Shown: piece by piece, positions 24,507-54,144 of the stretch
Numbering within the stretch: position 1 is the first letter of the stretch
How the letters are laid out: every line of letters begins with the position of its first letter
DNA from: Bacilli bacterium
GTDB lineage: Bacteria > Bacillota_I > Bacilli_A > RF39 > UBA660
DNA: 64,000 bases
Assembly: GCA_017527675.1 (NCBI GenBank)
Contig: JAFXPU010000002.1
Coordinates: 6,400-70,399 of the forward strand
Direction: 5' to 3'
The notes under the pieces: generated by a model
What the model was told of the DNA's origin: nothing
Databases searched by the model: none
The model's input: the letters and a program-made list of their open reading frames with translations, nothing else
Translations under genes and position numbers: made by a program

Positions 24507-24670
24507 TAATTTTGCAAGTGCAAAATAAGTTTGATATCACTCTTTTTCTTATGAAATAAGGAAATATTGAGTATATAGATATCATTCTCTTATGCTCTTG
24601 CTAAAATATTCTATAAAATTCCATGATTTGTGGGACATTATAGCCCATTTATGGGATTATAAGTCAATAA

Positions 24671-25651: not shown

Positions 25652-28256
25652 CTCTATATTGAATTGCTTTTAATAATTCTTCTGTTGATAGTTTATTAAA
25701 TACATTATTATCAACATTATCTAATACAGAATCTGATAATTTTGTTTTAGTTTCCATTAATGCAGCGATAATTTCTTCTATGGTATCTCTAGTCGTAAAT
25801 TTATAAACATTAACACATTTCTTCTGACCAATTCTATACGCTCTATCTGTTGCTTGATTTTCAACTGCTGGGTTCCACCATCTATCAAAATGAATAACAT
25901 TAGTTGCACTTGTTAAATTTAATCCGACACCTGCAGCCTTTAACGACAAAATCATGTACGGAACATCGCCATTTTGAAACTCATTAACATATTTATCTCT
26001 TTGAGTTGTAGATGTATCACCAGTAATGATAAATCCCTCTTTATGAAAGACTTCTTTTAGTAAATTATTAAGTGGTTCTGTTATTTCTTTAAATTGAGTA
26101 AATATAAGAACTTTTTCTCTTTTCTCGAAAATAGTTTCGCATAATTCTTTTAATGCTACAAATTTTCCACTATCTAAAATTGAAAAATCCTCATCACCAG
26201 TAAATTGAGATGGATGGTTACAAATTTGTTTTAAGTGTAAAATTGCAGTGAGCACAATTCTTTTTTGAGCAAACTGATTTTCTTCACTTATTTTTTTATC
26301 ATCCAATTCTGAAACAATTTTTTTATATAAAACAATTTGTTTTTTAGTTAATTCTGTAAATAAGACATTTTCATTTTTTTCTGGTAAATCATCTATTATT
26401 TTTTTATCTGTCTTTAATCTTCTTAAAATAAATGGCTTTATAATCTTACTTAAACTTGAAACATTATTGGTATTTGCACTTTTTATATTATAATTTTTTC
26501 TAAATTCGGATTCACTACCAAGTAAACCAGGATTTAAAAAATCAAAAACAGACCATAGATTTAATAAGTTATTTTCAATAGGTGTTCCAGTTAAAGCAAT
26601 TGAAGTTTCTCTTTTAATAGATTTTATTTTTTTAGCAGTCTTTGTATCGGGATTTTTAATTGCTTGTGCTTCATCTAAAATAGTTATTCCCCAATCAATA
26701 TCATACAATGTAGTTAAACTTTGTGATACTTGATATGTAGTTATTGTTAAAAAAGATTTTTTGATTTTCAAAGCGTCTGAGTTAATATATCTAGCAATAT
26801 AGTAATCCATTGTAGGAGTAAACTTTTGTATTTCTCTTTCCCAGTTTCCTAATAGTGATGCTGGAACAATTAACAATACATGTTTATCAGAAAATTTACT
26901 ATAAGACAAAAGAAACGCAAGAATTTGAATTGTCTTTCCCAATCCCATATCGTCTGCAAGACAAACTCCAAAACCAAATTGACTCATACCTAAAAGCCAC
27001 TTAAACCCGTCCATTTGATAAGGTCTTAGTTTTCCATTAAAATTATTTGAAATATCAAGTAACTCAGGAGTACTATCTAAATTTTTATTTACTAAGTTTT
27101 GAATCCAATTATCGTTTGTAAATTCTATTTTAATATCGTCATCTTTATAAGTATTTATCCTTGTATAATGAACTAATTCTGAAAAACTTGAACCATCATT
27201 TTTTATTATTTCATATTCATCAAGTAATTTTTTAAGTTTATTTTTATCAATTTCAACCCATTTACCTTTAATAACAGATAATCCTTCAGTTTTTACTAAT
27301 AATTCTTCTATTTCGTCTTGAGTTATATCTATTCCTTGATATTTCATTTTTGGAGAAAATCCGATTAAATTTCCAATATTAAAATACCCAAATCCATCTT
27401 TTTTCTTTTGCTCAATATCAACTTCTATGGATGTAGATTTGCTTCTTTGACTCCACCAATTTGGAATGCGGCAAACAATTCCATTTTTTTCATAAATTGA
27501 GATTTCTTTCAAAAAAGTATATGCCTCTTCTGTATTTAAATAAATTGGTGAGAAAATTTCTCCATTCTGAATTAAATTATTAATAAAAGTGCTTTCCTTT
27601 GCAACTTTATAAAGTGATTTTGTTAATTCACGAAATTCAGTTTCCATATTGTTGTACTCTTTTAATGCTTGACGTAATGGAAAGTGCTTTATACTACCAT
27701 CTTTTATTGTGGTATATGTAACCATAAAAGCAAATGGAGCATCACCATTAGGTGCTTCTACCATGTGAAAATAAACACGTGAAGGAACAATTAATGTCTT
27801 GTTTTTATTTGTAAAATATAAATCAACACTTCCTTCAAATTTAGAAATTTCACTTTTATAAATATCGAGTAAATTGTTAATTATGTTTTTAATCCAATCT
27901 AAATTAATAAACTCATTTCCAATACAAAAAGGTGTATCTTCTAATAGTTCATTTAATTCAAAATCATCATAATTAATTTCAATATTATTTCTAACAATTT
28001 CAAGTCCAGGAATATTTAATATATATCTTATTAATCTTTTTGATATTTTTTGCAAATATCTTGTTGATTCAAATTCTATATTTTCATTATCTTCAAATGC
28101 CAAATTAAAAACAATTGAATATTTATTATCATTAATATAATCGATATTGTCGGTGCTTAGATTAACATAGTCTGATTTAAAATCTAATTCGGTAAAAATA
28201 AAATTAACTGAGTTCAAATCTATCACCTCTTTATAATTATAACATGAAATATACAT
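25644..28256 (-). CDS. SNF2-family helicase with an N-terminal SNF2-associated domain
   Basis: LRPYQMDGFKWLL...LADDMGLGKTIQ (motifs I/Ia), DEAQAIKN (DExx box), and C-terminal helicase motifs (QATDRAYRIGQKK). Confidence 0.9.
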   Translation of the reverse strand: MYISCYNYKEVIDLNSVNFIFTELDFKSDYVNLSTDNIDYINDNKYSIVFNLAFEDNENIEFESTRYLQKISKRLIRYILNIPGLEIVRNNIEINYDDFELNELLEDTPFCIGNEFINLDWIKNIINNLLDIYKSEISKFEGSVDLYFTNKNKTLIVPSRVYFHMVEAPNGDAPFAFMVTYTTIKDGSIKHFPLRQALKEYNNMETEFRELTKSLYKVAKESTFINNLIQNGEIFSPIYLNTEEAYTFLKEISIYEKNGIVCRIPNWWSQRSKSTSIEVDIEQKKKDGFGYFNIGNLIGFSPKMKYQGIDITQDEIEELLVKTEGLSVIKGKWVEIDKNKLKKLLDEYEIIKNDGSSFSELVHYTRINTYKDDDIKIEFTNDNWIQNLVNKNLDSTPELLDISNNFNGKLRPYQMDGFKWLLGMSQFGFGVCLADDMGLGKTIQILAFLLSYSKFSDKHVLLIVPASLLGNWEREIQKFTPTMDYYIARYINSDALKIKKSFLTITTYQVSQSLTTLYDIDWGITILDEAQAIKNPDTKTAKKIKSIKRETSIALTGTPIENNLLNLWSVFDFLNPGLLGSESEFRKNYNIKSANTNNVSSLSKIIKPFILRRLKTDKKIIDDLPEKNENVLFTELTKKQIVLYKKIVSELDDKKISEENQFAQKRIVLTAILHLKQICNHPSQFTGDEDFSILDSGKFVALKELCETIFEKREKVLIFTQFKEITEPLNNLLKEVFHKEGFIITGDTSTTQRDKYVNEFQNGDVPYMILSLKAAGVGLNLTSATNVIHFDRWWNPAVENQATDRAYRIGQKKCVNVYKFTTRDTIEEIIAALMETKTKLSDSVLDNVDNNVFNKLSTEELLKAIQYRGE

Positions 28257-28496
28257 TTTTCAGTCATTAGGTTCAAACCAATAATAATGTTTTAATGTTA
28301 TGTGGATTATTGTGGCTTTATTATGACCACAATTTATTAATTTTTTATGTACAAAAAAGTAACAGGATAAGACGCTGACACCCACACTTCAAAAATTCTT
28401 AGATAATATCTAGAAATTTGTGGTGTCAAACTTATTTCGAACTTTCGAAATTGCTCCTAAAAACTAATAAAATTTTTACAAAGCTAGGTAATACCT

Positions 28497-28546
28497 AATA
28501 AAAAGTGCTCCCAAATTGATATTTTTGTGATACCTTTTTGGGAGCA
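28497..28546 (-). terminator. Hairpin GCTCCCA...TGGGAGC followed by ACTTTTT (minus strand)
   Basis: 7-bp GC-containing stem and a 26-nt loop, downstream of the small ORF at 28579..28782. Confidence 0.3.
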
Positions 28547-28578
28547 AAAATTACTAAAATTAAATTATTAACATATGC

Positions 28579-28782
28579 TTAATCTGAATAATTAAAGAAT
28601 AGAATCATAAAATTATCAAGTACTGCTTTATGTGGTTCAAGATAAGTAAGATTAGTTGTATTTAGTTTAACTAGATTACCGCAAATATACTTTGGTTTTA
28701 ATGACATACTTTTTAGACTAAAATCTACTTTATTTTTAATTGTCTTATCCATATCAATTTTAGTTTTTTTAATTTTTAACAT
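28579..28782 (-). CDS. Small hypothetical protein (67 aa)
   Basis: AAAGGAG RBS about 10 nt upstream; no recognisable motif. Confidence 0.3.
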   Translation of the reverse strand: MLKIKKTKIDMDKTIKNKVDFSLKSMSLKPKYICGNLVKLNTTNLTYLEPHKAVLDNFMILFFNYSD

Positions 28783-28864
28783 AAAAAATCGACTCCTTTC
28801 TGGAATCGAATTTTCTTTTATAAACTGGAACTTTGAACTTGTTTGTCCGCAGTAACTAACTAAA

Positions 28865-28938
28865 TGGCAGGGGTAGCAGGAGTCGAACCCACATCAGCGG
28901 TTTTGGAGACCGTTATTCTACCATTGAACTATACCCCT
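28865..28938 (-). tRNA. tRNA-Trp (anticodon CCA)
   Basis: Reverse complement AGGGGTATAGTTCAATGGTAGAATAACGGTCTCCAAAACCGCTGATGTGGGTTCGACTCCTGCTACCCCTGCCA. Cloverleaf with anticodon loop CTCCAAA and an encoded 3' CCA. Confidence 0.85.
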
Positions 28939-31397: not shown

Positions 31398-31956
31398 TAT
31401 TATTGGTATAAGTGGTAGTCCTAGAATTAATAAAGGATCATCATATAACTATTTAAAAAGAGTAACTAACAAAATAATAAGTAGTTATATATATAATAGT
31501 AAGGACCTTAAATTAATTAAAAAAAGCGATACAATTATTTTTTCTTTTCCTTTATTTGTTGATTGTCTGCCTTCACATTTCTTAAAATTCTTAATAGAAT
31601 TAGATAATAATAAAATAACTAATAAAAATATCTATGTAATATGTAATTTAGGTTTTTATGAAGGAAAACAAGGTAATATAGCTATTGAGATTATGAAGAA
31701 TTGGTGTCACAGAACCAATAATAATTATATGGGCGCTTTAGTAATTGGTGGAGGTCCATTATTTAACTATCCTGTTATTAAACTTAAACCAAATCACTAT
31801 TTAAAAAAACTAAGTGATTGTGCTATTAATAGTAAATTATTTAACGATAAATATATAGCTCCCCTATTACCTAGATGTATTTACTATAGATGTGGTAATA
31901 TGAGTTTTAAAAATGATATAAAGAAAAATGTAGTCAAAAAGAAAACCATTATTTAA
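31390..31956 (+). CDS. Flavodoxin-family protein
   Basis: Overlaps the previous gene by 8 nt; similar size and layout. Confidence 0.45.
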   Translation: MSNIIGISGSPRINKGSSYNYLKRVTNKIISSYIYNSKDLKLIKKSDTIIFSFPLFVDCLPSHFLKFLIELDNNKITNKNIYVICNLGFYEGKQGNIAIEIMKNWCHRTNNNYMGALVIGGGPLFNYPVIKLKPNHYLKKLSDCAINSKLFNDKYIAPLLPRCIYYRCGNMSFKNDIKKNVVKKKTII

Positions 31957-31961
31957 ATAAT
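31936..31961. terminator. Bidirectional hairpin overlapping convergent stop codons
   Basis: AAAACCATTA-TTTAAA-TAATGGTTTT, a perfect 10-bp stem. Confidence 0.5.
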
Positions 31962-32345
31962 GGTTTTTTCATTTTCATCTTTCATAGGCATCACAATATA
32001 TTCTGCACCATCACTATTAGTAATATAAGCATCACTATTAATATTCTTTATAAGGTTAAAATCACTTTTGTCTAGTTTGTCAAGGTGCTTTTCTAACAAT
32101 GATTTATCAATATTATTACCTTTTATAGTATAAATATATACGTTCTTATCTAAATAAAGAAAATCACAACTATTATTGTCTTTTAAATAATATATTGGTC
32201 TTAAATTATTCTTTTTAGCATTTAGCAAATCTTTAAATGATTGAACAAAGATAATATTTTTAGAAAATAGTCTAGGAATATTAACTATTTCTACTAGAAT
32301 GTTATCATACTTTTTTAAAGTATCTTTAATTAATTTATTTCCCAT
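31953..32345 (-). CDS. Hypothetical 130-aa protein, last gene of the TasA/SipW-like cluster
   Basis: Start overlaps the stop of the SipW-like paralog by 11 nt. Confidence 0.4.
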   Translation of the reverse strand: MGNKLIKDTLKKYDNILVEIVNIPRLFSKNIIFVQSFKDLLNAKKNNLRPIYYLKDNNSCDFLYLDKNVYIYTIKGNNIDKSLLEKHLDKLDKSDFNLIKNINSDAYITNSDGAEYIVMPMKDENEKTII

Positions 32346-33540
32346 TAATATTTCCTTTTACTAAATCCTTAAACCAAATAGTTGGATAAGCTATTTTTTT
32401 AACTTTAAAGTTATTATAAATACCTATTAAATCTTTTTTAGAAATATATTTATATGTATATTTATTATTTGTTTTAGTCTTTTTAACATATAAACTAACT
32501 ACATCATCTTCATTAACTTCCTTTAAAGCAATACGATCAATAATAATTTTATTCTTTGATTTATATGCTATAATATCACCTTTTTCATAATCATCATATT
32601 TTAGTCCTTTATAGATAATAATAGCATCACCTTTTTCAATTTTAGGGCCAATTGCTGATGTATCTACACCAATTAAATGATATGAGAAAATACCAGATAT
32701 TAAACCAACAAAGATAGTTATAATAATAATTAAAGGTATATCTAGTAAGAATACTCTTAAAGTATTTAATTTTTTATTTGGTTTTTTATTCTCAGGATTC
32801 TTTTCATATTCTTTTTCTTTAACATAGTATGTAATCATACGACTACCATATATATATAATAATGTTGGGAAACATATATTAATAATACTAGTTAAATAGT
32901 TACCTAAATCTGGAACAGATGGCACTAAATAAATATATAATCCTAAAGTTATAACATATATTAAACATGGTAAGTAACCAACTTTATCTGTAAAATATGT
33001 TAATACAATATTTTTAAATATAACTGGTATAATAACAACTGTTAAGAAAATAAACATATTTTCAGCTGTTACATCAAATGTATAAAAACATAAACTAATA
33101 TCAAAGAAGATAATAATTAGTATACCAAGCAATTTAGCATAATTATATTCACGATTATTAGTAATATAAATATATCTAAATACTTCTAAGGCTGTTACAC
33201 TTATAAGTGGAGCCCAGATGTTTTTTAGAATACTTACAAATCTTAAGGAATAAGAATTTCTTAAAAATCCAGTAAATAATCCAAGTAAATATATAAAAGT
33301 GAAATAGATAAATATTCCAATAATAAATTCATAGATTATTTTTTTAGTTATTTTAGTTATTTTTATTTTTTTATAATCATAAATAAATATACTTATAATA
33401 GTAATTATTAGAATGAAGAATGCACTTAATGTATGTGCTAAATTAGGTAACTTTGGAACAATTAAAATAAAATAAATAAATGTATAAATGAAGGTAGCTG
33501 TTAAGACTAATAAATTTTTAACTGTATTTTTATTTATCAC
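32335..33540 (-). CDS. SipW-like (S26B-type) signal peptidase paralog fused to a polytopic membrane domain; probably catalytically degenerate
   Basis: 401 aa. About 8 TM helices (aa 1-270) followed by a peptidase-like fold GVDTSAIGPKIEKGDAIIIYK...IIIDRIAL. It is homologous to 52948..54135, but Ser-Met is replaced by Ala-Ile and the HRI His by Asp. Confidence 0.55.
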   Translation of the reverse strand: MINKNTVKNLLVLTATFIYTFIYFILIVPKLPNLAHTLSAFFILIITIISIFIYDYKKIKITKITKKIIYEFIIGIFIYFTFIYLLGLFTGFLRNSYSLRFVSILKNIWAPLISVTALEVFRYIYITNNREYNYAKLLGILIIIFFDISLCFYTFDVTAENMFIFLTVVIIPVIFKNIVLTYFTDKVGYLPCLIYVITLGLYIYLVPSVPDLGNYLTSIINICFPTLLYIYGSRMITYYVKEKEYEKNPENKKPNKKLNTLRVFLLDIPLIIIITIFVGLISGIFSYHLIGVDTSAIGPKIEKGDAIIIYKGLKYDDYEKGDIIAYKSKNKIIIDRIALKEVNEDDVVSLYVKKTKTNNKYTYKYISKKDLIGIYNNFKVKKIAYPTIWFKDLVKGNINGK

Positions 33541-33548
33541 TTTAACAC

Positions 33549-34247
33549 CTACTTTTCAACATAGACAATCTGATATTCAAGACTAAGCATTTGAGCTTCA
33601 TCTGGTAAATCAGAGGCCTCTATATCAGTTCTAAATTTTAAAACAAACTTAATTGTCTTTTTACTATGTGCACTTAGTGTATCATTTATATCTATTTTTG
33701 TTCCATCTTTATACGTAATTTCATAATTTAAATATCTTTTTTGTCTAGTTGTTAAACCTTTATTAATTATTTCAAATATTTTAGCATCATGAGAACCGCT
33801 ATTAACTATATCAACTGTAAATTCATAATAGTCACCTGGTTCTTCTAATTTAACTTCATAATAAATATCTGTTTTATTATTAGCTATTTTGGCTTTAGTA
33901 ATTGGTTCAACTGAACCATCTTTTTCTTTTAGATTTTCAAATTCAATATGCCAATCTAAATCTTTAATTTCGGTTGTTCCTGTTTCAACTGGAATATATA
34001 CAGCAGGCAAGACACGACCTGGTTCTTTATCTGGCTTTTGAGGTTCTGGTTCAGGTTGTGGTTTATCTGGTTCAACCGGTTTAGGTTCATTTCTTTTTAT
34101 AACTTTTATACCTAAATTAAAGGCTAAAGAGGCATATGCAATAGATATTAAAATTAAAACAACAATAAATGATAAAAAGTATACTGGTTTAGCTTTAGTA
34201 TCTTCTATTTCAATGTCATCTATTTCCTTTTTTACTTCCTCATTCAT
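33549..34247 (-). CDS. Membrane-anchored TasA/camelysin-like domain protein
   Basis: 232 aa. TM anchor FLSFIVVLILISIAYASLAF, a Pro-rich spacer (EPKPVEPDKPQPEPEPQKPDKEP), then a domain aligning with the giant protein N-domain (EPGDYYEFTVDIVNSGSHDAKI ... LSLEYQIVYVEK). Only 8 nt gap to the SipW-like gene. Confidence 0.5.
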   Translation of the reverse strand: MNEEVKKEIDDIEIEDTKAKPVYFLSFIVVLILISIAYASLAFNLGIKVIKRNEPKPVEPDKPQPEPEPQKPDKEPGRVLPAVYIPVETGTTEIKDLDWHIEFENLKEKDGSVEPITKAKIANNKTDIYYEVKLEEPGDYYEFTVDIVNSGSHDAKIFEIINKGLTTRQKRYLNYEITYKDGTKIDINDTLSAHSKKTIKFVLKFRTDIEASDLPDEAQMLSLEYQIVYVEK

Positions 34248-34339: not shown

Positions 34340-37300
34340 TTACATCATAAATTCAAGAATGCAGTATTCATATTGGTCATCAACGGCAGGTACTATCTTG
34401 ATTTGGTAATTTCTTTCAGTATCAGATGTTGCAGATCCAGCTGTACGAGCATTTGTTGAACCTGTAAATTTACCATCATAGAAGTTGAATGCACCATTAC
34501 CACGAGATATACCATAACCAGTTGTTGTACCTATTGCTTCAATATATGGATCAATTGTTGATGTTGTAGTTGAATCAAAACCAGTGTTTTCTTTAATACC
34601 TAATGTTATAGAACCACTAGTTGAATTATCATCTATTCTTACACCATATGCTGTAGCAGCATGAGCATAAATATTACCAGTTTCAATTGTATATGAACCA
34701 TTATTAACAAACGCACCATAAGCTGATGTTGTACCATTTACATGATAATCAGCATTACGTGTTACTAATGTTCCTTTATCCACATAGACACCATATGTAT
34801 TAACTGAATCAGTTGAATTAAATTCACCACCATCAACTGTAATATTACTATTAGTATTATCTGCATAAATACCAAAGGCATTATTAGCTCTATTAATATT
34901 AATTTCAATATTACTGATTGTTGATGAATTAGAAGAATTATCAAGTATAGCATACATTCTCTCAGCTTTATTCATTGTAAATGTATCTCCATTAGATGTT
35001 AAGATAGCTGTATTATATATACCAGCTTCATATCTATAATAATATGTTCCATTTTCATAAGTACGATTTAAAGTATAATCATTACCAGTAGTATTTAATG
35101 TACCACTATTGCTAATAATTCTTACATAATTATTAGTACCTGAATAAGTATCTGTAAATACAACCGTATTATTATTCAATGTTAAAATACCACTATTACT
35201 TATCATATTAAATTCAGAATAATTACCATAACTATGTGTAATATTAGCTTTCTTAATTGTTGTTGTACCTGTATTAGAAATAGTTCCTTTAATATCTTTA
35301 ATATTTGTATTACTAATACTTAATGTACCATTTGTTTTAGTATTGTTAATATTACCAGTTATTTCTGTATCAGTTATTGTTACATTAGGTGTTGAATTAA
35401 TATAAATTGAATTTGTACCTTGTAATATAGAATCACTAATTGTATTTGTTTTAGTTGAATTATCATATATTACATAATTACTTCCTTTAACAGTTGAATC
35501 ACTGATTGTATATTTTCCTGAATTTATAATTGCTTGATTACGTGAAATATTTGTAGCATAAGTTATTGTTAATACTCCATTTTCATCATTATCAACAGCA
35601 TTATAATTTTCTAATTCAATATTACTAATTGTTAAATTATCTTTATTAATAAGTGCTGTAACAGATAAACTGTTGCTTAATTTTGAATCATTATTTGTAT
35701 CTAAATTTGTAATAACTAATGTACCATTGTTGGTAATTGATTTTGTCATATTAAGATTATGACCATGTAAATCAATAGTAATTGTCTTACCTGTTGGAAT
35801 TGTTACAGCATATGACAAGTTAGCATCAGCATTAAATTCTAATGTTGCACCATCATCTGCTAAATCAATAGCCGTTTGTAAATTAGAACGTGGTTCTGAA
35901 GGATTACTACTATCTATAATGAAAGGTTGTTCTAACACAAGATAGATTTCCTTAATAAATTCTGAGGCATAGATTGGTTCAACTTCATAGCCATACATTC
36001 TCTTATTATATAAGTTTGGATTAGCTATATAACCAGATCCACCTCCAGCTCCACCATGACCGCGGTTAGATCCACCACCACCGTAGTAACCACCACCGCC
36101 ACCGGCGCCGCCGTAGCCTGAATTACAGAAATTAGATCCTTGGCCAAATGAACCATAGCCACAACTACCATTAGCTAATTTACCACCTGATGTTTGTGTA
36201 GCACCGGTACCATTATATGAGGTGTATGAATTATTATATCCATCGTAACCAGAGTTACCTTTATAACCACCAGCATTTCCACCTGGTGAAGTAGTACTAG
36301 AACCTCCAGCTCCACCACCACCAGCAGCTACGATTATAATTGCATCTTTATTACTTTCAAGTGTTGATAATAATCCTGAGGCTGTAGCAATGTGTGTTGC
36401 TCCACCACCGCCATATGACCATTGGCCGCCGCCTGAGCCACCATTACCACCGCCGTTGTAACCGCCATCATATTGAGTTCCAACACCACCAACATTAATA
36501 TATAATGTTTCACCAGCAGTTAAATCAATATAACCTTCTGAATATCCACCATAACCACCATTTGAGCCTCCACCTTGAGCACCCCATGCTTCTAATCTAT
36601 ATGTTCCTGTACAAGGAACAGTAAATGTATTTTCAGCATTTTCAGGTAAATATGAATATTCGTGATTTTGTTCACATACTCCCTCAACAGTTTCACCAAC
36701 ATAAGTAATTTTAGCATAACCATTATTCATTTTTGCATAATGACTAATTGGATCCTCAGATACACTTGTTGTTGAATATGTTCTATATTTTTGATTATCT
36801 AATGATATTTCCCCAGCATTACTTTCAAATATTTCATAACCACTTCTAACATTTGAAATAATACTATTAACAGCTTCATTAGTACCAATAATATGACCAG
36901 AATATATATTTACACTTGCATTAGAAGAATATATACCAAATAAACCACCATTAACATATGGATCAGTTATATCATTTTCATCTTCTAAATTACCGATTGT
37001 TACATATATCGTTTCACTAGCTTGTTGTATACCATAAATTGGAGCTATTATTGTTCCTTTATTTAAGTTTAATGTTGTTGAACTATATGCAGGATAAGAA
37101 TACATATATACACCAACATTACCTGATGTTATTTCTCCACCATTAATGTTTATTGTTTCATGACTTTGTGAATAATAACCCGGACTACTATAACGGTATA
37201 TACCATAAGCATCTGCACCTGGTGTTGTAATTATCGTATTACCATTTATTTCTAGGTAACCACGTTCATCATTTATACCAAATGCGTTACTTGCACCAGC

Positions 37301-40300
37301 ATTGATTGTTACATCTGTTAATGTTACTGGAGCATATTTATATATACCAGAAGCATTATCTGCAGTTATAGTAATATCACTTATATTACAGTTAGATTCT
37401 GATGTACAATATATTGCATAATAATCTCTATTAGTTGCAGTTGTGATTACTTCGGTATCACTACCACTGATAGTTAAATTATCATATTGTGATCTAATTG
37501 TATGTTCACCACCAGTAAATGTTCCACCAGTAATAGTTATTGTTCCTTTTGGATTCTTATAAGAATCACTATAAATAGCTGAACTATTTGTCGATGTAAT
37601 AGTACCATCTTCAACTTTTACTTTTGTACCATATCCAGCTAACCTAATTGATTCTGCTGTTGTTTGAATTGAACCATCTTTCATTTCTAACTCACTATTT
37701 TGACCATTTAGATAAATAGCAACATTTGTTAAATCAAATGAACCATTATTCATAATTATCTTTTGAGCTGAATCAAGATAGATTCCACGATATCCTTCAA
37801 ATGTTGGATTATTTTGTAATGTTATTGTTCCTGTTCCAGATGAACCATAAATAGAACTTCCAGCAGATTTTAGATGAGCACCATCTAATACCATTATTCC
37901 TTTGTTTTCAATAGTATTAGTAATAGTATTATCTAATAAACCTGAACCATTATCGTAAATAGTTAAAGTTCCTTCATTAACAAGTGGTTGAGTCATTGTT
38001 AATGTTTTACCATTCATATTAATAGTAATATTTTTTGAACTTGGAATTGTTGCACCAGATTGTACAAAAGCAGATGACTTAACTAAAATTGTTCCTGTAT
38101 CTTCAATTGCACCAATTGCTGCAGTAAATGAATTGTATTCATCACCATTTACTATTAAGAAGGCTTCTTTTGGAACTAGATAATTAACTATCCAAATATC
38201 AGTTGGAATTTGGTAACCATACATTTCTCCACTAATTATATTTACATCTTTTATGTAGCCTGAGCCACCGCCGCCAGATCCGGCAATGTCTGAATTAACA
38301 CCAGAACTACCACCACCGTAGTAGCCACCGCCACCACCAGATGAATAGTCTGTTCCATTTGCACCTTTACCAAATGAACCAGCAGCACCATTATTATATG
38401 TACCTTCACCAGCAGCACCACCTGCAGTTTGAGTACCACCACCAGCTAATTTAGTTAACGATGGTTTAGACTGACCACCATGGCCACCTTCATTACCACC
38501 ACCAGATCCACCTTGAGCATTGTATGATCCGTAGCTACCACCGCCACCACCACCGGCAACAATGATAATATCATCTCTATTATTTTCAAATGTAGTAAGT
38601 AAGCCAGATGATTTAGCTATATGAGTAGCTCCACCACCAGCATAATAGTTATCACCAGTAGAATTACCACCACCATTATAGCCACCTGTTGAACCAACAC
38701 CTTGACCACCTACATTAATATATAGAGTATCTCCAGCAGTTAAATTAATTTTACATGTTGAGTAACCACCATAACCACCATTTGGTGATCCACCTTGAGC
38801 ACCCCATACTTCTAATTCGTATGTTCCTGTTTCAGTAACATTAAATGTTTGTTCTCCATTTGTAAAACTAAATGTTTCAGTTTCATCTTCAGCAATGAAT
38901 GTTATCTTAGCATAACCGTTTCCTTGTTTAGCTTTCTTACTAACTGGATCCTCTGATACTTCTTCTGTTGAATTTGTAATTATATTACCAGTTACTGAAG
39001 AACTCTCTTGTACTGTAGCAATATCATATGCTTCACGAGTTGAAGAGAAATCACTATTATATCCAGCAGAACTTCCTCTTAAACGTCCTGAATAGAAATT
39101 AGCAGTACCAGCTTCTTTATAGATACCATATGTTCCACCTGATACATATGGATCATAGATATCATTCTCATTATTTAAATTACCAATAGTTGTATATACA
39201 GTGCTAGATGTTTGTTGAATACCATAATTCTTACCTGTTATAGAACCATTATTCATATTAAGAGTTGTTGAACTATAAGAAGGATAAGAATACATATATA
39301 CACCAACATTACCTGATGTTATTTCAATATCATTAATAGTAATTGTTTCATAACTTTGTGAATAATAACTTGGACTACTATAACGGTATATACCAAAAGC
39401 ATTTGAACCTGGTGTATTAATTACTGTATTACCATTTATTTCTAAGTAACCGCGTTCATCATTAATACCAAATCCATTGCTTGCGCCAGCATTGATTGTT
39501 ACATCTGTTAATGTTACTGGAGCATATTTATATATACCAGAAGCATTATCTGCAGTTATGGTAATATCACTTATAATGCAATTAGAATCTGATGAACAAT
39601 ATATTGCATAATTATCTCTATTTGTTGCGGTTGAAATAACCTTTGTATCGCTACCACTAATAGTTAAATTATCATATTGTGATCTAATTGTATGTGTTCC
39701 ACCAGTAAATGTTCCACCAGTTATATTAATTGTTCCTTTTGGATTCTTGTAAGAATCACTATAAATAGCTGAATTATTCGTTGATGTTACAGTACCATTT
39801 TCAACTGTAAGTTTTGTATTGTAACCAACTAATCTAATTGATTCACTACCAGTTGATATTTCTCCATTTTTCATCTCAAATTCACTGTTTTGAGCATTAA
39901 GATAAACACCTACACCTGTAGTATTAATTGTTCCGTTATTCATGATAACCTTTTGAGCAGAATCAACATAAATACCATTATATCCTTCAATAGTTGGATT
40001 GTTTTGTAATGTTATTGTTCCTGTTCCAGCGTTTCCACGAATAGCGTAATTAGTAGATTTAATACTTGCATTATCAATTACTAATGTACCTTTATTGATA
40101 ATAGCATCAGATGCTTTATTATCAATTTTACCTGTTAATCCAGGTTCATTCATTATCGTCAATGTTCCTTCATTAGTAATTGGTTGAGTCATTGTTAAAG
40201 TATGACCTTGTAGATCTAGAGTAATATTATTTTCACTTGGTACGGTTGCTAATTCTTGTAGACTTGCATTTTTAAATACATAAATTGTACCTGTATCCTC

Positions 40301-43300
40301 TACATCACCAATAGCAGCTTCAAGTGAATTATATTCAGTTCCGTTATATATCAAGAATGCTTCCTTATTAACTAAATAATTTACAGTCATTGAATTTCCA
40401 TAGTCAGAATAAGTATACATTACTTTATTGCTTAAGCGACTGTTGTTATTATAACCAGAACCTCCGCCACCAGCTGTAGCATAGTTGTTACCAGCAGCAC
40501 CACCACCGTAGTAACCACCACCACCGGCACCACCCATAATTTTATTTGAAATTGTTGATTCAGGACTACCACCTTTACCAAATGATCCATTTCCTAAATT
40601 ATTATTATAGGCAAAGTATCCAGGTCTATTTACTGTTGCACCAGTACCATAGTACTGTGGATAAGATGGAGATGGAACACCATCTGCAGCTCTGTAACCA
40701 CCGGCATCTCCACCAGAACCATATTCTGAAGAGCTCCAGTAACCAGAACCACCACCACCACCGGCAACAATTAAAATTGCTTCTTTATTATTTTCTAATG
40801 TTGATAACTCACCTGATGTTGTAGCAACATGTGTTGCTCCACCACCAGATCCAGAATAGAATCTTGTTGATGGATAAAGCATTACAGCATCTCCACCACC
40901 ATTATAACCACCTGGAATAGTAGTGTTATTATCATAACCTATTGTACCAGCACCACCAACATTAACATATAGTGTTTCACCAATACTTAATTCAATTTCA
41001 CCTGTAGCATATGAACCATATCCACCACGAATTGATTCACTATATGAACCACCTTGAGCACCCCATACTTCTATTTTGTATAAGCCAGCACATGGAGCAC
41101 TAAATGGTGCTTCTCCAGGTTCAGTAAATGAAGTAACAGAATTTTGTTCGCATACACCCTCAATAGTTTCGCCTAAATATGTTATCTTAGCATAACCATT
41201 ATTCATTTTTGCATATTCACTAATCGCTTCATCAGAAACATTATTAGTGACAATTGTTAAATTCTCTGATGTATTTTCATGTTCACTAGTAATTTCTTTT
41301 GCAGCACGTAATGCATTAAAATCTTGATTATATCCGCCTGATAAACCTCTTAAACGTCCTGAGTAGAAATTTGATGTACCACCATTTTTATATAATCCAA
41401 ATAATCCACCTGATACATATGGATCATAAATATCATTTTCAGCATTTGGATTACCAATTGTAACATATACAGTACTTGAAGCAGCATGGATACCATATGT
41501 ATCACCAACTACTGAACCATTATTCATTACTAATGTTGTTGTACTATAACTTTGTCCTGAGAACATATATATACCAACATTACCAGATTTAATATCAACA
41601 TCATTTATAGTTATAGTATTATAACTTTGACCATAATAACCTGGATTACTATAACGGTATATACCATAAGCACTACCTCCAGGTGTATTAATTATAGTAT
41701 CACCATTAATATTTAAATTACCACGTTCATCATTAATACCAAATGAATTATTAGCATTTGCATTTATTTCAACATCTGTTAATGTTACACTACTATATGC
41801 ATATACACCTGAGGCATTTTCAGCTGTCATTGTTGAATTTGTAATATTACAATCAGATTCAGAATAACAATATAAAACATACTTGTCATTACCTGAACCA
41901 GTAACAATCATATCCGTACCACTAACTGTTAAATTATCATAGTAAACTCTAACAGCACTTGATACACCAGTTATAACACTATCAGTTATCTTTATAGTTC
42001 CTCTTGGACTCTTATAAGAATCACTAAAGTAACCATAAGTACCTGTTGAAGTAATATTACTTCCATCAATTGATACCTTAGTATTATATCCTAATGTTCT
42101 AATTGCCTCATTTACTGCTGTAATAGAACTATCATTAACTTCTAATTGACAATTAGTATTTTCTAGTCTTATACCAACATTAGTTGCATTAATATCTGCT
42201 TCATTAACCACAAATTTTGAATTATCTTTGTTACATGTTAAAGCATTATAACTATTTATAGTTGTACCATCTAATGTTGCTGTTGTATTTGCATTAGTAA
42301 ATTGAATAGATGCACGTTGTCCATTATCAATAATATTCGTATCACCAATTGTTACATTTTTAGCAACTTCAATACCTTGAATATTACCACCACTAATAAC
42401 ATAATCTTCATGATTACTTAATAAAGCATATGTATCACTTTTTAAGTAAGAATCATTATCCATTGTAAATGTACCAACGTTATTAACAGCATAACCATTT
42501 TTAGCTTCAATACTAGAATTAGTAATATTTAATGTTCCATTATTATTAATAGTATTACTATTTGTAACTTGTTTTAAAATAATATTTTCAATAGTTAACT
42601 CGCCATCATTAGTAATTGGACTTGCACTTGTAATTGAACCTGGATTTTCAGATATATCATAGATTCTTAAAGTACCATTATTAGTTATTGGACTACCTGT
42701 TGTAATATTGTAACTTTGCATATTTATTTCAATATCATAATCTTCTCTTATTTCAATAGCATATGATGCCTCAAAATCTCTTACAATATTAACTGGTTTA
42801 CCCATATAGTTAGCTGTATCTATTGCATTTTGAAGATTGAAGAAATATTGAACATTTTCTCCACCATTTTCAATGATTGCAACAGCATTAGCTGGGTTAC
42901 CATTTAAGAAACTTCTTTGATATATTGTTCCAATTACTGGTTCTGTATAGAATGTATATCCACGAGGTAATGAATTAACTCCACCATTTAGAGTAAATTG
43001 ACCTTGTAAATATCCATCATAGAAGTTAAATGAGCCATTTTGTTCTAATGCTACTGTTGAACCAATAATAGCAATTGCTTCTGTTTCAATAGTTCCGTCA
43101 TTAACACCCATTGTTAAAGTTTTATTATTAACAAGACCAGTACCATCTGGATTATTAATAGTACCATTTAATAAAATCATAATACCATTATTAATAAATG
43201 CACCAGTTAAAGTATGACCACCTAAGTTGAAGGTTACATTCTTATTATTAGTTACATTTTCAGTTGTATCTTTAATAAGTTCAATTGTATCATTTTCATT

Positions 43301-46300
43301 TGCAGCTGCTAAAGCTTCAGCAATAGATACATAGTATTCATCGCCTATTTTAGCAACAGCATCATCATTAACTGTCCAAACAGCTGTAACAGTAGCATCT
43401 GATAAATTCATTGTTACAGTATTACCATCTAAGATTCCAGCCTCAGATGCTTCCCAATGATTGAATGTACAAGCATGTTTTTCAAGTTCACTTGGATTAT
43501 CAATTAATAGATATGGTTCACCATGTTTTAAGTAAACTAATCTAACTTCTTTTGATCCTTTATAGTATCCAGATTTTGGATCTATTGTTAAATATAAATC
43601 TGTATTACCAGCTATAATATCATCTATTGATAATGATTGAAGATATTTTCTTTCACTTTGTTCTTCATGTTTTGTAACAACACGTGCAAGATTAGCAATA
43701 GATGTTATTTCACCTTCCATAGCTTGGCTACCTTCAATATAACCATCATACATATTAAATGTATTATTGTTTTGTACAGCTATATTTTCACTTATTATTC
43801 TTATACTAACACTTGATACAGCTTCATCATTTTGACCCATGTTAAATGTACCATTATTAACAACAGCATAATCATCAAAGTTCATGATTGTACCATTATA
43901 AATATCAAGTGTACCATTGTTAGTTACTTTGGCTGTAATACTATATCCACCTAAATTAACTACTGCTTTACGACCAGAAGCAACTTCAATTTCGGTTTCA
44001 TCAGAAATTGGTTTTAATAAAGTAATCACACCACCTAATTCTTCATCATAAGCATTAATAGCAAGTTGTAATGATGAATAATAAGTTTCACGATATACAG
44101 CAACAGTTTGTCCACCGTAATCATTTTTAATATTTTCTAGCCATGCATATTCATAACTAGTTTCTTCATCGACATATGTTGTAACTTCTTGATCTTTTTC
44201 AACTAATGTAGTAGTTCCTACTTTAGCAAAACGAGAAGCCCAGATAACACCATCGTAGAAATTGAATGATCCATTTTCTTTATCTACACCAATACCTTTT
44301 GTAGTACCAATTGAGTGGATAACTGGATTTTCTTGAGATACATTATCTACTGAGTTGTCATAATGACCCATGATAAATGTACCTGGATTAATGTAAGCAC
44401 CATAAGTTGTTGGAGCATCAGATACATTAATTGAACCAGTTAATAATGTAGTTTGGGCATTAGCAGTAACCATATAAACACCATAGTTTTCAGCACTACC
44501 AACGGCATTTATTTCTGAATTATCAATTAAAGTGTTACCGCTGCCACTAGTTTCAATACCATAGTATTTACCAGTTTTTTGTTCAGCATGTCCAACAGTT
44601 AAACTACTTTCATTTTCTAATGTTAAAGAACCTGTATTAGAAATACCTTTAACGTAATATTTATAAGTATTAGTCTCATCAACTTTAATATTTGTATTAT
44701 TGATATCCATTGTTCCACTATTATAAATAGCTACATAAGTATCACTATAATTATAGTTTTGTGGACTACCTAAATTAATATTTGAATTATTAATAGTCAT
44801 AGTTGCTGAGTTACTAATTGAACCACCATTTGTATTAGTAACATTTACTCTTTCGAATGTTGCAATAGAATTACTTGAATTTGATATTGATCCATTAGAA
44901 CCAATTATGATATTAGTATCAGTTACATCTAAAGTAGTTCTTATACTTTCAATGTTTCCATCAAGTACTGTATTAATTCCATTACCAACAACAGTTACAG
45001 TTGCTTGGGAATTATCATTAGAATAAATACTATAGTTTTCACCACTATAATTACCACCAGTAATAGTAACATTTTTAGTATTATTAATTGCAATTTTACT
45101 AGCTACAATATTTGAAGAAGTTATATCTAATGAATTTGTATTATAAATTGCATTAATAGCATTCATTCTTGAATTATTAATTACTAAATTACTTGTATTG
45201 TTAATTATATAATTTGATGAACTAACATTAGTTAATTTAATGTTATTAATATTTAGAGTTCCATTATTATTAATTAAATTGATTGCAGATGAAGTTTTAA
45301 TATTTGCTTCATTTTCTGAATCATTAATTAAAGTAATGTTACCATTATTCGTTATTGTTTTATTTGTTGAAATTGTATAACCATGTAAGTCTAAGTTGAA
45401 ATGTTTAGTATTATTATTTGTAACAGAATAGTATAAAGGAACATTAGCTACTAAGACAACTGTTTGATCTGTATCAGCATCATTTATAGCTTCTTGTAAG
45501 TTAGTATATTCAACTCCTGTTTCCCTGTTATATGCTATAACACTTTCCATAATTAAATATTTAACTTTATAAGTTTCACCATCAATAATTTCTGTATCTG
45601 GGAATATTTGAGCATGAGGAGGAATATTAGAAATAATTCCATATTCAGCTTCTGTTGTTCCTTTTAAGATACCATCATAGAAATTAGTTGTTCCACCATC
45701 AATATATAAACCATAGAAAGTACCTTGAATCATTGGTTGAGTTATATCAATGCTATTATCTTCCACAACACCTAATATTGTTGTTCCAGTTGTATAAACA
45801 CCATAAGCACCACCAATAATAGAACCACCTGTAATAACACAGTTATCAGATGATGTATTTAAACCATTGTTATCTTCACCAGTAATAATACCGCCTGTAA
45901 TTAAGATTGTATTACCTGAATTAGTATTTGCAACACCATTTGTTTTACCAGTGATTGTACCACCATTGATAACTACATGGCCTAAAGCATAATAACTACC
46001 CTTAGTAACAGATACAGCAGTGCCAACTGTAGATGTAATAGTACCATCATTGATAGTTGTTGTACCATCTTGAATAGCAACAGCATTACTATTTGCTACA
46101 TTTGATGTAATAGTACCGCCATTAATAGTTGTTGTACCCCAGCTATCTAATGAATATGTATCAGTTCCTTCAATAGTACCACCATTAATTGTTAGAGTAC
46201 CACTACTATATACACCACCATAGTTATTAATTGTTAAATTATCAATTGTTAAAGTACCACCATTGTTAATAGCATAATCTTGATCAGCATTATATGTACC

Positions 46301-49300
46301 ACCTTCAATAGTAAGAGTACCAGTGTTATAAACAGCAGCAGTATTATATCCATCCGCATTACCATTTGAACGGATATTAGTTATACCACCATTACCAACA
46401 CTATCTTTAATTGTGTTAGTACCTTTAGTTTGAAGTGGTTGAGTCATAATAACTGAATGACCATTTAAATCGAATGTTATGATTTTACCATATGGAAGTT
46501 CTTGTTCATAATCAACATAAGCATCAGCAATAACTTCAATTGTACCTTCAGAATCAATTGCTGCTGTTGCGTTAGTTAAGGTATTATATTCAACTCCATT
46601 AACTCTTAACCAGTTACCAACTGGAACTAAATATTGAGTTTTATAATAATCACGATCAATATAAGTATAATCATCTTTGATCATATAAGCATCAGGTATT
46701 AAACCAATTAAACCATTATGTGGTTCTTCCATACCTTGTAAAACGCCATCAAAGAATTTTGTATAAGCAGTTGTATTTAAACCATATCTTTTACCAGTTA
46801 ATGATGGAGATTCAATTGATACATTTTTCTCATCATCACCTATTTGCGTTTCAGTTGATGTATAAACTCCATCAACTTCACCAATTATTTCACCAGCATG
46901 GATAGATAATTTAGCACCAATTGCATGAATACCATAAGAATCAGTACCTTTAACTTTACCACCAGTTATGTTTATGTCGTGGTAATAGCATCCACCCCAT
47001 CCAGAGTAATAACAGATATGTTCAATACCCATTGTACCAGTTACTTCACCGCCTGATACATTAGTTACCTGAGCTGTAACAACAGCAACACTATTATTAG
47101 ATTTAACTTCACCATTGGAAACTGTAATACTACCATAGTAAGAATATAAAGCATTATGAGCATTAGCTTCTACACTACCACCATCAACATGAATAGTAGC
47201 ACCAGCTCCCCCAATACCATAATTTTCGCCAAATATTGTTCCACCATCAACATAAACAGTTCCAACATTATAGTTGTATGGTGATGAAATACCCATATCT
47301 GAACCAGTAATAGTACCACCATGAACAGTTGTGTTACCTCTGTTGTTAATACCAGCAAATGATTCTTCAATATTGATATCATTTATAACTAAATTAGCAT
47401 CGTTAGTAATTGCATATTTATTAACATTAAAATAAGCATTGTTAATTGTAAGTAGACCAGATTCATTTATGATAACTTCATCTACTACTTCTGATAAATA
47501 ATTACCAGCTTCAATAGTTAATTTATTTCTATTTGTAATACCAGCAATTCTTGTTGGTTTTATTGTACCTAAATTACTGTCATCAACAATTGTTACATCA
47601 GAATCATTGTATATTGTTTGAGTACTTGTAATTGTATGACCATTTAAATCAAATGTAATATGTTTATAGCCAGTTTCTTCTGTACCATTATCAACAAAAT
47701 GTTGAGTAAATACTAAATCAGCATCTTTAATAACTGTAATGGTACCTGTTTCACCTTCACCAATAGCTTTAGATGCAGCATCGATAGAATTATATTCTGT
47801 ATCACCAACTTTTAACCAATTTTCATAATGAACAATAAAATCAGTTTGATATAAGTTTCCATCAATTTCTTCTTCACCTTCACCACCAACGCAGGCAAGT
47901 GGTAAACCAGTAATACGACCTTCATAACCATCTACTTGACCTTTTAAAATACCATCATAGAAATTAGTAACAGGTCCATCAATATATAAACCATAAGCAC
48001 CACCAATAATTACTGGATAATCTTCTGGCTCATCTTCATCAGTGTCTTCAAAACTGCCTATTGTTAAAGATCCTTTATTATAAACGCCATAGTTTTCACC
48101 ATAGATATCTGTTTCACTACCTGTAATTGTACCAGTACCCATTACCGTAATGGCATTAGCTTCACTACTATGTACTTTACCACCACTGATATTTAAGTTA
48201 GTTGTAACCAATGCATCATTTGCTGATAACACTTCACCACCAGAAATAGTAGCAGATGAAACCGAAACTGCACGACTTTCTGATGTAACCTTACCACCAG
48301 TAACTGTTAAAGAATTATTTGAATAAACACCATAATTTTTACCAGTTATCTCACCAGCAGAAATATTAACGTTGCAACTACTGATACCAATATTTTCACC
48401 TTTAACAAGTCCACCATAAACATTAACAGTTTGACCACCGCAAGATATAGCAGTATCGTTATCAGAATAAACATCACCAGCATAAACATTAACAGTTGCA
48501 CCACTAATAGCAATTCCATTAACTGATTTAATTTCGCCATTATTATTAACATTAACAGTACCTGATGAAATAGCATTACCTTGGCTAGTTATTAAACCAC
48601 CATTAGCATTAACAGTACCATAGCCATCATAGTAATTAGATATACCTGTTGTTTGAGATGAAATAGTACCATCATTTACAGTAATAGTTCCTCTATTGTA
48701 TATCATTGTTGTATCATAGTTTGTACTTATTTCACCAGCATTCATTGTAATAGTTCCTGTATTAGTAATAGCTGGAATATAATTTCTATCATCTATTTTA
48801 TAAACATGTAATTTAGTATTTTCATCTAAGACAATTGAACCAGTATTATATAAACCATAAATAGTACCATCATCAACAACTAAATTATCTGATTTATTAT
48901 ATAAACCATAATTACCAGTTGAATCAATTAATGTATCCTCAGTAAAGGTAATTACGGCATCAGTATTATTATAAATACCATATCCACCTTTAGAAGTAAT
49001 TTCTGTATCATCTAAGTTTAAAGTATTATTATTTTGAATTACGTTACTATCAGTTGTTGCTACAAGATCAACATCATCAATATCCATAACACCATTATTA
49101 ATGATTGTAAATGATGTTTTTAATTTACCATCGTCTTCAGCAGAACTTAGTATCTTGAAATATCCATTATTAGTAACTGTATTACCAATTGATACTGTAT
49201 GACCCATAGTGTCAAAGAATAATCTTGAGTTTTCAGGAATTTCTATTTCATAAGGTGCTTCAAAATTACGATGAGCATAAACTATAAAGTTTGAATCTAA

Positions 49301-50812: not shown

Positions 50813-50842
50813 CTAAAAAAAAAGCAAACTTGATAAGTTTAC
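50813..50842 (-). terminator. Intrinsic terminator between the 249-aa gene and the giant gene
   Basis: Minus-strand hairpin GTAAACTT-ATC-AAGTTTGC followed by T8-9 (A run at 50815-50823). Overlaps the upstream gene's stop codon. A TATAAT element lies about 40 nt upstream of the giant gene ATG. Confidence 0.5.
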
Positions 50843-51588
50843 TTGATTTTTTCTATTATTAATTTATTATCCTTAACAGCAAATTCAACAATTACATCAT
50901 TATCAACTTTTCCTATCTTGGAAATATTGTCTTTAGTAATCATTTTTTTAACTTCTTTAGCCTTAGCTTTTCCCTTTAAATAATCAGATATAGCCTTAGT
51001 ATCAACGTTATTTTGGTTATCTTTAAATTTATTATTTAAAAGACTAATATCATTATAATAATTCAAGATTTTATAAGGATTATCAACTACATATTTACTA
51101 AATGTTACTTCAAATTTTTTGTTATTTATTTTTTTAATTTTCTTTAATTCAAATTTAACAATTTTAGTTTTCGCAATGTCTGATTTTATATTAGATTTAT
51201 TATAAGTATAACTAGCATTACTAAGATCAAACACAATTCCCTTATCAGCCATATAAGGAGTAATTCCAATACTTGCAACTGCATCAATATCATATTCTTT
51301 ATCAAAATATTTGTTAACAACTTCAATTATTTCATTAGCGCTAAAAACGTTTTTATCGGTATTATTATAAAGATATTCAATAGCAAAACAAATATATTTA
51401 CCGCTTTCATCATCATGTTCTGTTATTTCCTCTAAATAATCAGCTATTTCATTACTAGTTTCTTCAACTTTTATTTTCTCTAAATTAGTCATTTTCTTTG
51501 ATTTTTTAAAGAAAATGAAGCAAGCTAAAAGAATAATTAAAAATGCTATAGCTATTATAAAATACTTATTAGTTAATACTTTTTTCAT
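50839..51588 (-). CDS. Membrane-anchored hypothetical protein (paralog A)
   Basis: 249 aa, N-terminal TM helix. Paralog of 51596..52351 (shared GITPYMxD, KKxKVT(F/Y)xKYV(V/I)(D/E)NPY(K/E)(I/V)LNYY). Confidence 0.5.
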   Translation of the reverse strand: MKKVLTNKYFIIAIAFLIILLACFIFFKKSKKMTNLEKIKVEETSNEIADYLEEITEHDDESGKYICFAIEYLYNNTDKNVFSANEIIEVVNKYFDKEYDIDAVASIGITPYMADKGIVFDLSNASYTYNKSNIKSDIAKTKIVKFELKKIKKINNKKFEVTFSKYVVDNPYKILNYYNDISLLNNKFKDNQNNVDTKAISDYLKGKAKAKEVKKMITKDNISKIGKVDNDVIVEFAVKDNKLIIEKIK

Positions 51589-51595
51589 ACTTCAC

Positions 51596-52351: not shown

Positions 52352-52382
52352 AATTACTCCTAACTAATTCTATTATACTACA

Positions 52383-52940: not shown

Positions 52941-52947
52941 ATTTCAC

Positions 52948-54135: not shown

Positions 54136-54144
54136 TTAATACTC

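Follow-up and report, generated by a model that had tools for sequence, protein, structure and literature searches.

The window analysed here, a 64,000-nt stretch of contig JAFXPU010000002.1 from a Bacilli bacterium, contains one giant gene, and the subject of this text is an array of three large repeat units inside that gene (Table 1). The gene is one open reading frame (ORF) on the minus strand, uninterrupted over 5469 codons and 16.4 kb; the codon of residue i occupies window positions from 50749-3(i-1) to 50750-3i, in descending order. The G+C content of the window is very low (20–34%). An exact-sequence look-up matched the window to the NCBI proteins MBR3523160–MBR3523194 (locus tag IKN87_) and to several ENA and Logan metagenome assemblies, which, judging by the study names, we take to be of ruminant gut origin. 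The giant protein is recorded as MBR3523190.1, "hypothetical protein," of a metagenome-assembled genome named Bacilli bacterium; among the members of its family, the annotation name was checked for this protein alone.

The N-terminal end of the protein carries a signal anchor, followed by a domain of ~190 amino acids (aa) common to two small neighboring proteins. The body is a series of beta-helix modules, each closing with a (F/Y)YDG/FYSG motif, and includes three glycine-rich domains (GRDs) of the ALK/LTK type; the last beta-helix module (aa 4936–5469) follows the third GRD and forms the C-terminal end. Tiled BLASTP also revealed older and larger internal duplications at 28–35% identity. Residues 201–633 matched residues 2387–2793 (window ~48851–50149 and 42371–43591), so that the block after the N-terminal domain returns 2185 aa further on, and the module at aa 1751–2205 resembled the C-terminal module at aa 4957–5466 at the same level of identity.

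The preliminary description had reported three consecutive units with a period of about 2.2 kb, and this structure was recovered at both the nucleotide and the protein level. A repeat search over 33–52 kb yielded direct repeats in two three-copy families, D2 and D3, with spacings of 2190 and 2271 nt across 35.9–42.9 kb, and further families (D7, D9, and D13) with spacings of 2208–2259 nt; every spacing was a multiple of three. A self-BLAST of the whole protein returned the trivial self match only, and 250-aa tiles were used instead. The tiles gave off-diagonal matches at an offset of ~730 aa between the second and third units (U2 and U3; E values to 1e-120) and of ~755 aa between the first unit (U1) and U2 (to 1e-77), which is far beyond chance. 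The order of motifs described earlier, namely a beta-helix, NGYAKIT (aa 3184, 3944, and 4676), WGAQGG with the glycine-rich part (aa 3229, 3982, and 4722), and (N)YLV (aa 3457, 4189, and 4936), occurred three times. Each unit consists of a beta-helix stalk with a helix core (H1–H3), followed by a TNF-like plus glycine-rich domain (G1–G3). The first ~266 aa of U1 (N1, aa 2610–2875) had no homology to the N-terminal parts of U2 and U3 (N2 and N3) beyond the general similarity of the modules.

Table 1. Features of the giant gene and of its flanks (positions are those of the window).
Feature	Positions	Strand	Residues	Remarks
Giant ORF	34340-50749	minus	5469 aa	single open frame
Unit U1	40382-42922	minus	2610-3456
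Unit U2	38186-40381	minus	3457-4188	732 aa
Unit U3	35945-38185	minus	4189-4935	747 aa
Helix core H1	41330-42124	minus	2876-3140
Helix core H2	39059-39859	minus	3631-3897	contains 74-, 45-, and 36-nt exact matches with H3
Helix core H3	36869-37669	minus	4361-4627
NGYAKIT strand before G1	41180-41200	minus
NGYAKIT strand before G2	38900-38920	minus
NGYAKIT strand before G3	36704-36724	minus
GRD G1	40406-41137	minus	3205-3448	ALK_LTK_GRD
GRD G2	38210-38875	minus	3959-4180
GRD G3	35984-36658	minus	4698-4922
45-nt exact repeat	37091-37135; partner 39281-39325	minus		contains the 36-mer of the preliminary description
SipW/archaeal-type signal peptidase I	52948-54135	minus		C-terminal ~115 aa, with membrane N-terminal part; TIGR02228, 86.1 bits (cut-off 51.85)
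Paralogous fused peptidase	32335-33540			TIGR02228, 43.4 bits, below the cut-off of 51.85
g232, small protein	33549-34247	minus	232 aa	C-terminal 144 aa 40% identical to giant aa 43-186; repeat family D17
g193, small protein	54145-54726		193 aa	second paralogue of the giant N-terminal domain

The glycine-rich parts belong to Pfam family PF12810 (ALK_LTK_GRD), which matched three stretches in aa 2801–5469 with 284.3 bits (cut-off 24.5; E = 1.4e-84). It was the only Pfam family found across the 5469 residues, including aa 1–2800 and the helix parts, and an NCBIfam search assigned no family and gave only a sub-threshold repeat match. A phmmer search of PDB sequences with the GRD region returned no match, and a profile was required: a linker-plus-GRD profile matched the Caenorhabditis elegans ALK homologue SCD-2 (7LIR) at E = 2.8e-5 and human LTK (7NX0) at E = 0.056. 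In a Foldseek comparison of an AlphaFold (AF2) model of aa 4640–4945 with the PDB, the top 21 matches were all TG (TNF-like plus glycine-rich) domains of ALK or LTK (E values of 1e-5 to 2e-3, probability 1.00, template modeling (TM) scores of 0.25–0.40); apart from these, there was no match below E = 2. The model had a predicted TM score of 0.79. It predicts a TNF-like beta-sandwich joined to a glycine-rich subdomain, and the residues NGYAKITY would form a beta-strand of the TNF-like part. In the model, DSSP assigned the glycine-rich stretch mostly to the class "other," a pattern that is compatible with a polyglycine-II lattice but does not prove it. The GRD also matched the phage families phrog_1589, 5811, and 7388, which are of unknown function. 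The strand GNGYAKIT precedes each GRD in the giant protein and follows the GRD, at the C-terminus, in the stand-alone proteins P0001, P0002, P0004, and P0010, which looks like the TNF-like sandwich in circularly permuted form.

The helix part of U3 (aa 4189–4645) was modeled with a predicted local distance difference test (pLDDT) score of 90.9 and about 50 short strands. All of its PDB matches were right-handed parallel beta-helix proteins (HxuA, pertactin, phage tailspikes, and PL6 lyases), although the matches were weak (E = 0.014 or higher; TM up to 0.54). The stacking of short strands and this similarity to known beta-helix proteins point to a predicted right-handed parallel beta-helix, for which neither Pfam nor NCBIfam holds a matching named family. 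Of the two domain types that had been named from the letters of the sequence, the beta-helix block is supported by this model and the glycine-rich domain by the Pfam match.

The units are less alike than had been proposed. In a codon alignment of all three, U2 and U3 shared 64% of amino acids and 71% of nucleotides, with 0.67 synonymous substitutions per synonymous site (dS), while the corresponding values were 47%, 62%, and 0.80 for U1 and U2 and 49%, 62%, and 0.80 for U1 and U3. The earlier figure of about 85% protein identity between U2 and U3 does not hold for the units as wholes: the helix cores H2 and H3 shared 78% over 264 aa (H1–H2, 61%; H1–H3, 57%), and 80–92% was reached only in 50-codon windows of this core, which had up to 93% nucleotide identity and a dS of 0.2–0.45. 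GRD windows of the same size were 39–69% identical, and their dS was often above 1. The closest pair also changed along the unit. At the helix end around the FYSG motif, it was U1 and U2 (68–69%, against 47–58% for U2 and U3), and in the linker with NGYAKIT and cysteines, it was U1 and U3 (57–65%). The similarity profile among the units is a mosaic. Long identical nucleotide stretches had also been described; the 36-mer is indeed exact at 37100 and 39290, within a 45-nt exact match. U2 and U3 share no exact block longer than 74 nt (at 37296 and 39486), and exact matches of U1 with the other units were 29 nt or less. Long uninterrupted homology of near-identical units was not found, as the nucleotide identities of 62–71% and the longest exact blocks of 74, 45, and 36 nt indicate.

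Homologues were collected by an exhaustive search with a three-unit profile, which returned 11,220 proteins at E ≤ 0.001; many of them were 4000–7000 aa long, and most shared the GRD part only. A sequence search with U2 gave 11 matches and missed the protein itself; saturation by glycine-rich words was suspected, and the profile search was used instead. The homologues compared below belong to other clusters at 50% identity. Colinearity of the giant protein with homologues extended from its first residue to the end of U1 (aa ~3450), with tile identities of 30–67%, and G3 mapped onto the last GRD of P0043, P0045, and P0046. Between orthologues, helix tiles were less conserved than GRD tiles (26–45% vs. 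46–56%).

A BLASTP comparison of single segments separated the parts of the unit. H1, H2, and H3 matched one another best (57–78%, against 41% or less to any homologue), and N2 and N3 were closest to each other (61%, against 44% or less to homologues). N1 was nearest to the colinear positions of homologues (41–45%); both N1 and the GRD of U1 were colinear with, and closest to, these positions in P0042, P0044, P0045, P0048, and P0054, and in U1 the helix core alone resembled U2 and U3. The nearest sequences to G1 were not G2 or G3 but the first GRDs of P0045 (56%) and P0044 (54%), and G3 shared 69% with the last GRD of P0046 and 63–64% with GRDs of P0042 and P0043, against 54% with G2 and 51% with G1. 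For both G1 and G3, the top five matches included no GRD of the same protein. Similarity within the genome thus exceeded similarity to orthologues in the helix cores and in N2 and N3, and not in G1 and G3. Neighbor-joining trees agreed with this split, as helix parts clustered within the giant protein and GRDs with homologues. The helix pairs H2/H3 of P0043 and H1/H2 of P0051 behaved likewise, so within-protein pairing of helices occurs in other lineages as well. After a recent duplication of whole units, the GRDs would be sister sequences, which they are not; the array appears to be ancient and its GRDs to be old paralogues.

The architecture of the homologues was determined with separate profiles for helix cores (H) and GRDs (G), run in hmmsearch with --max --nobias since the default filters missed GRDs; with the 60% coverage filter, the short GRDs of P0056 and P0057 were still under-counted. 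The giant protein had the order HGHGHG, P0042 had HGHGHGG, P0043 had HGHGHGGG, P0044 had HGHGGHGG, and P0045 had HGHGG, and other homologues had runs of four to eight GRDs. The differences between these architectures imply that, over long spans of time, units are added to and lost from members of the family. Across P0041–P0078, proteins of 4000–7000 aa, the number of C-terminal GRDs ranged from one to eight or more. Profile scans of genome contigs, with a single unit and with the three-unit alignment, and of metagenome contigs found no relative; the patterns were helix-specific, and this result is hence not evidence of absence.

Contigs from other assemblies were retrieved through the neighboring 232-aa protein and the variants in its 90% cluster. 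Four contiguous sequences, each from a different ENA assembly, covered all three units: L001 (100% identical to the window), L003 from another sample (99.98%), the k141 contig L010 (99.98%), and L008, a diverged strain from a third data set (96.4% over 15.2 kb). All four were colinear with the window and had three units each. The 90%-identity cluster contained three distinct full-length proteins on five contigs, all of 5469 aa. The repeat-number variation and length polymorphism that had been expected were therefore not seen among close strains in these three distinct complete proteins and four contiguous assemblies.

The comparison of L008 with the window revealed a different kind of change. 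Over 9907 aligned nucleotides of the gene, there were 387 substitutions (3.9%) and no insertion or deletion. Only informative sites were counted, at which the other two units were fixed and different from each other, because a match to a paralogue says nothing where the paralogues are identical. In U2, the window agreed with U3 and L008 with U1 at 16 such sites, and the reverse held at five; the sites fell in three patches (39539–39694, 39314–39335, and 39258–39259). Among all 30-nt windows of the 9.9 kb, strain differences were densest at 39539–39568, with 11 differences against ~1.2 expected (Poisson P = 5e-8 before correction and ~5e-4 after correction for the number of windows). The putative conversion tract in U2 was delimited as 39537–39566, and further patches as 39314–39341 and 39258–39263. 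In this tract, U2 of L008 carries the U1 pattern, and U2 of the window is identical to U3; the 74-nt exact match between U2 and U3 of the window falls in the same zone. Clustered substitutions that copy the state of another unit were thus found in U2 between two strains, and, taken together with the 74-nt match, they suggest that at least one short conversion occurred in U2 since the strains split.

The ratio of nonsynonymous to synonymous polymorphism (pN/pS) between the two strains was 0.03–0.35, except in three short segments of low divergence; the gene is under purifying selection between the strains. G3, with a pN/pS of 0.03, is strongly constrained. At ~37670–39058 (aa 3898–4360), the dS between the window and L008 was 0–0.04, compared with 0.11–0.16 in most other segments, which points to strains having exchanged this part of the gene recently.

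On the whole, we consider it likely that the region is an old array of three modules in a giant secreted protein, whose helix parts were homogenized by gene conversion and whose unit number has stayed constant in all the available assemblies. The region would be the C-terminal third of an extracellular protein of an uncultured rumen bacterium, probably exported with the help of the adjoining SipW-type peptidases, and each of the three modules would have a stalk of right-handed beta-helix with an ALK/LTK-type TG domain behind it, the array being closed by the last beta-helix module. The positional counterparts of the first unit and of the last GRD in homologues suggest that the array is old. 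In this lineage, the helix parts and the N-terminal parts of U2 and U3 would have been homogenized by non-reciprocal recombination between units, and this conversion could have yielded both the core of high identity and the exact stretches of 36–74 nt, while the GRDs went on diverging. Partial duplications that replaced the helix parts in this lineage may have taken the place of conversion at this step. At the strain level, conversion would continue as short tracts that alter the sequence and not the length. Such behavior is of a kind common for giant repeat-bearing surface proteins; the family that shows it here is uncharacterized, and its domain is an uncommon one.

A recent tandem triplication of the whole 2.2-kb unit, in which near-identical copies would drive unequal crossing-over and length polymorphism, had been proposed for this locus. 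The in-frame units with their periods of 2190 and 2271 nt, the U2/U3 core with up to 93% nucleotide identity and its exact blocks of 74, 45, and 36 nt, and the changes in unit number among homologues, which show gain and loss on evolutionary time scales, all speak for it. However, even the best pair of units has 64% amino acid and 71% nucleotide identity, the dS is about 0.67–0.80 overall and falls to 0.2–0.45 only at best in the core, G1 and G3 each resemble GRDs in distant homologues more than they resemble one another, and a strain diverged by 3.9% has no insertion or deletion in 9907 nt, all complete copies being 5469 aa long. In addition, recombination is strongly suppressed between sequences that differ by ~10–30%. 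A recent origin of the triplication is therefore improbable. The idea behind it, that in-frame units recombine with one another, retains its value, as the units do seem to recombine, but by short-tract gene conversion and not by changes of length. The likeness of the helix cores could also be due to purifying selection stronger than that on the GRDs, acting after an old triplication and with no gene conversion at all. The low pN/pS in most segments does show that constraint exists, but synonymous sites in the core are also alike (dS of 0.2–0.45, compared with 1 or more outside it), orthologues are less conserved in the helix than in the GRDs, and the sites in U2 that differ between strains lie in clusters and match other units. 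A stronger constraint on the helix cannot explain a pattern in which this part is less conserved between orthologues and has similar synonymous sites, and we regard selection alone as a rather more doubtful explanation than a recent triplication.

Least probable of all is an artefact of assembly, in which short-read assembly would have collapsed or expanded the locus and the real number of units would differ. A hazard of this type had been pointed out, and part of it is real: the Logan contigs L004 and L006, assembled at k = 31, break at the 45-nt exact repeat. Both stop at 37120, where the first 30-mer shared with 39281–39310 (37091–37120) has its final base and where a graph with k = 31 must branch. 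Scaffold L002 has N gaps within the gene, at 37901 and 35410, and adds little. Nevertheless, the same structure is present in the four contiguous assemblies, at least one of which is a MEGAHIT k141 contig and one a different strain, and the frame is open over 16.4 kb and under purifying selection between strains. With ~29% of the nucleotides different between units and no exact repeat above 74 nt, a length below k = 141 and, by our assumption, below that of the reads, paths are unambiguous at large k and a collapse of units is unlikely; an identical extra copy would show only in read data. The hazard is thus limited to small k, and the path is unique at k = 141; in practice, the locus assembles with large k and fragments at k = 31. 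The gaps of L002 lie in 35392–35418 and 37900–37901. Contigs L005 and L007 end at 35393, although the window has no repeated 30-mer there; strain variation, or a repeat in another part of the genome, may account for this break.

Several points weigh against the interpretation of the region as an old, partly homogenized array. Only two clearly distinct strains span all three units, so a low-frequency polymorphism in copy number could be missed, and either direction of conversion (U3 into U2 in the lineage of the window, or U1 into U2 in L008) would fit the data from two strains. All the sequences are short-read metagenome assemblies, in which a mixture of co-existing strains could create some of the patchy differences. 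The affinity of G2 is ambiguous, with ~53% identity to G3 and 51–53% to GRDs of P0041, P0046, and P0045, and the trees are distance trees of short glycine-rich alignments without bootstrap. The GRD model is of moderate quality (mean pLDDT of 74; TM of 0.3–0.4 to ALK/LTK), and the adhesin role considered below is putative.

On this reading, the 2.2-kb triplication that looks recent would be an array of old modules that have evolved partly in concert, and a map of similarities alone would exaggerate both the instability and the assembly risk of the locus. Concerted evolution and variation in repeat number are characteristic of the repeat adhesins of staphylococci and streptococci. The giant protein resembles them in its in-frame tandem modules homogenized within the gene and in a unit number that varies among members of the family, but its units are very long (730–850 aa) and diverge by 29–39% in DNA, the homogenization is partial, and no length polymorphism was seen among close strains.

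The known TG domains of ALK and LTK bind ligand. All three units match this family (PF12810; structures 7LIR, 7NX0/7NX1, 7LS0, 7MZY, and 7N00), and the predicted fold matches as well. However, the giant protein is bacterial, its three domains stand in a row, each behind a beta-helix, with no kinase, EGF, MAM, or LDLa context, and its GRDs share only about 20% sequence identity with ALK/LTK. The fiber gp24 of cyanophage Pam3 has a TNF-like beta-sandwich followed by a glycine-rich lattice, and this part was proposed to be the receptor-recognizing tip, with variable distal loops (PMC9608196). By domain description, the GRDs can be likened to such glycine-rich fiber tips of phages (Pam3 gp24 and gp38 of Salmonella phage S16), and the layout of gp24 is similar; unlike the phage fibers, the giant protein has no phage context, is monomeric by prediction, and has no recognized chaperone gene nearby. 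By prediction, the stalks have the same right-handed parallel beta-helix fold as HxuA (4RT6), pertactin (2IOU_G), and tailspikes (7EEA, TM of 0.54), repeated many times in the giant protein. In contrast to HxuA and pertactin, SipW-type peptidases adjoin the gene, and no two-partner secretion or autotransporter machinery was seen near it.

The ligand binding by ALK/LTK and the proposal for Pam3 gp24 led us to read the array as three binding tips. By this analogy, the GRDs may be ligand-binding tips, the beta-helices would serve as spacers or stalks that hold the tips apart, and the giant protein would be a putative multivalent adhesin. That the first and last GRDs are conserved, and G3 strongly constrained, would fit specificities that are distinct and maintained. 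A more far-reaching and rather unlikely reading is that, in a gut commensal, three anciently diverged TG domains serve as distinct ligand-binding tips and that intragenic conversion between the helix units is a built-in source of sequence variants. If so, this would be surface variation without cassettes, by mosaic alleles, in a large uncharacterized family of SipW-linked giant proteins. If the GRDs are binding tips, proteins of this type could attach rumen Bacilli to the host, to feed particles, or to other microbes; they would also be a bacterial source for work on how the ligand-binding domain of ALK folds. In any case, the analysis draws attention to an uncharacterized family of bacterial proteins of 4000–7000 aa that combine beta-helix stalks with an otherwise rare ALK/LTK-type GRD; in the literature on bacterial PF12810 proteins, we found no description of this giant-protein family.

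The genes next to the giant gene include two signal peptidases of the archaeal/ER type, 31% identical to each other, of which that at 52948–54135 scored above the cut-off of its family and lies beside the candidate substrate genes. The small proteins g193 and g232 are 29–40% identical to residues 16–187 of the giant protein. This neighborhood and the shared N-terminal domain fit a protein that is secreted or lies at the surface and that a SipW-like peptidase handles. As in the TasA/SipW operon of Bacillus, a SipW-type peptidase adjoins small secreted-looking proteins, which here share the N-terminal domain of the giant protein. In contrast to that operon, the small proteins have no match to TasA/camelysin (Peptidase_M73) or any other Pfam family, as also holds for aa 1–2800 of the giant protein, which include its N-terminal domain; the peptidases carry a fused membrane domain of ~270 aa, and the peptidase misses the SipW equivalog cut-off (67 bits vs. 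190).

The flanks at 31953–34247 and 50839–54726 are two paralogous gene sets. A DUF5305-like protein at 52383–52940 resembles that at 31953–32345, and the proteins at 51596–52351 and 50839–51588 are 35% identical. These paired sets look like a duplicated export or assembly module. A phage origin of the locus was rejected, as the neighboring genes do not resemble phage genes and no PHROG match had a known function.

Further away, a stretch of ~8.7 kb (20159–28863), with a tRNA-Trp gene (28865–28938), encodes a helicase with SNF2 and DUF3670 domains (25644–28256) and an ApeA-like HEPN protein (23060–24343). In strains L009 and L011, this stretch is replaced by ~2.2 kb coding for an HRDC-domain protein and two others; it is a variable island and possibly defense-related.

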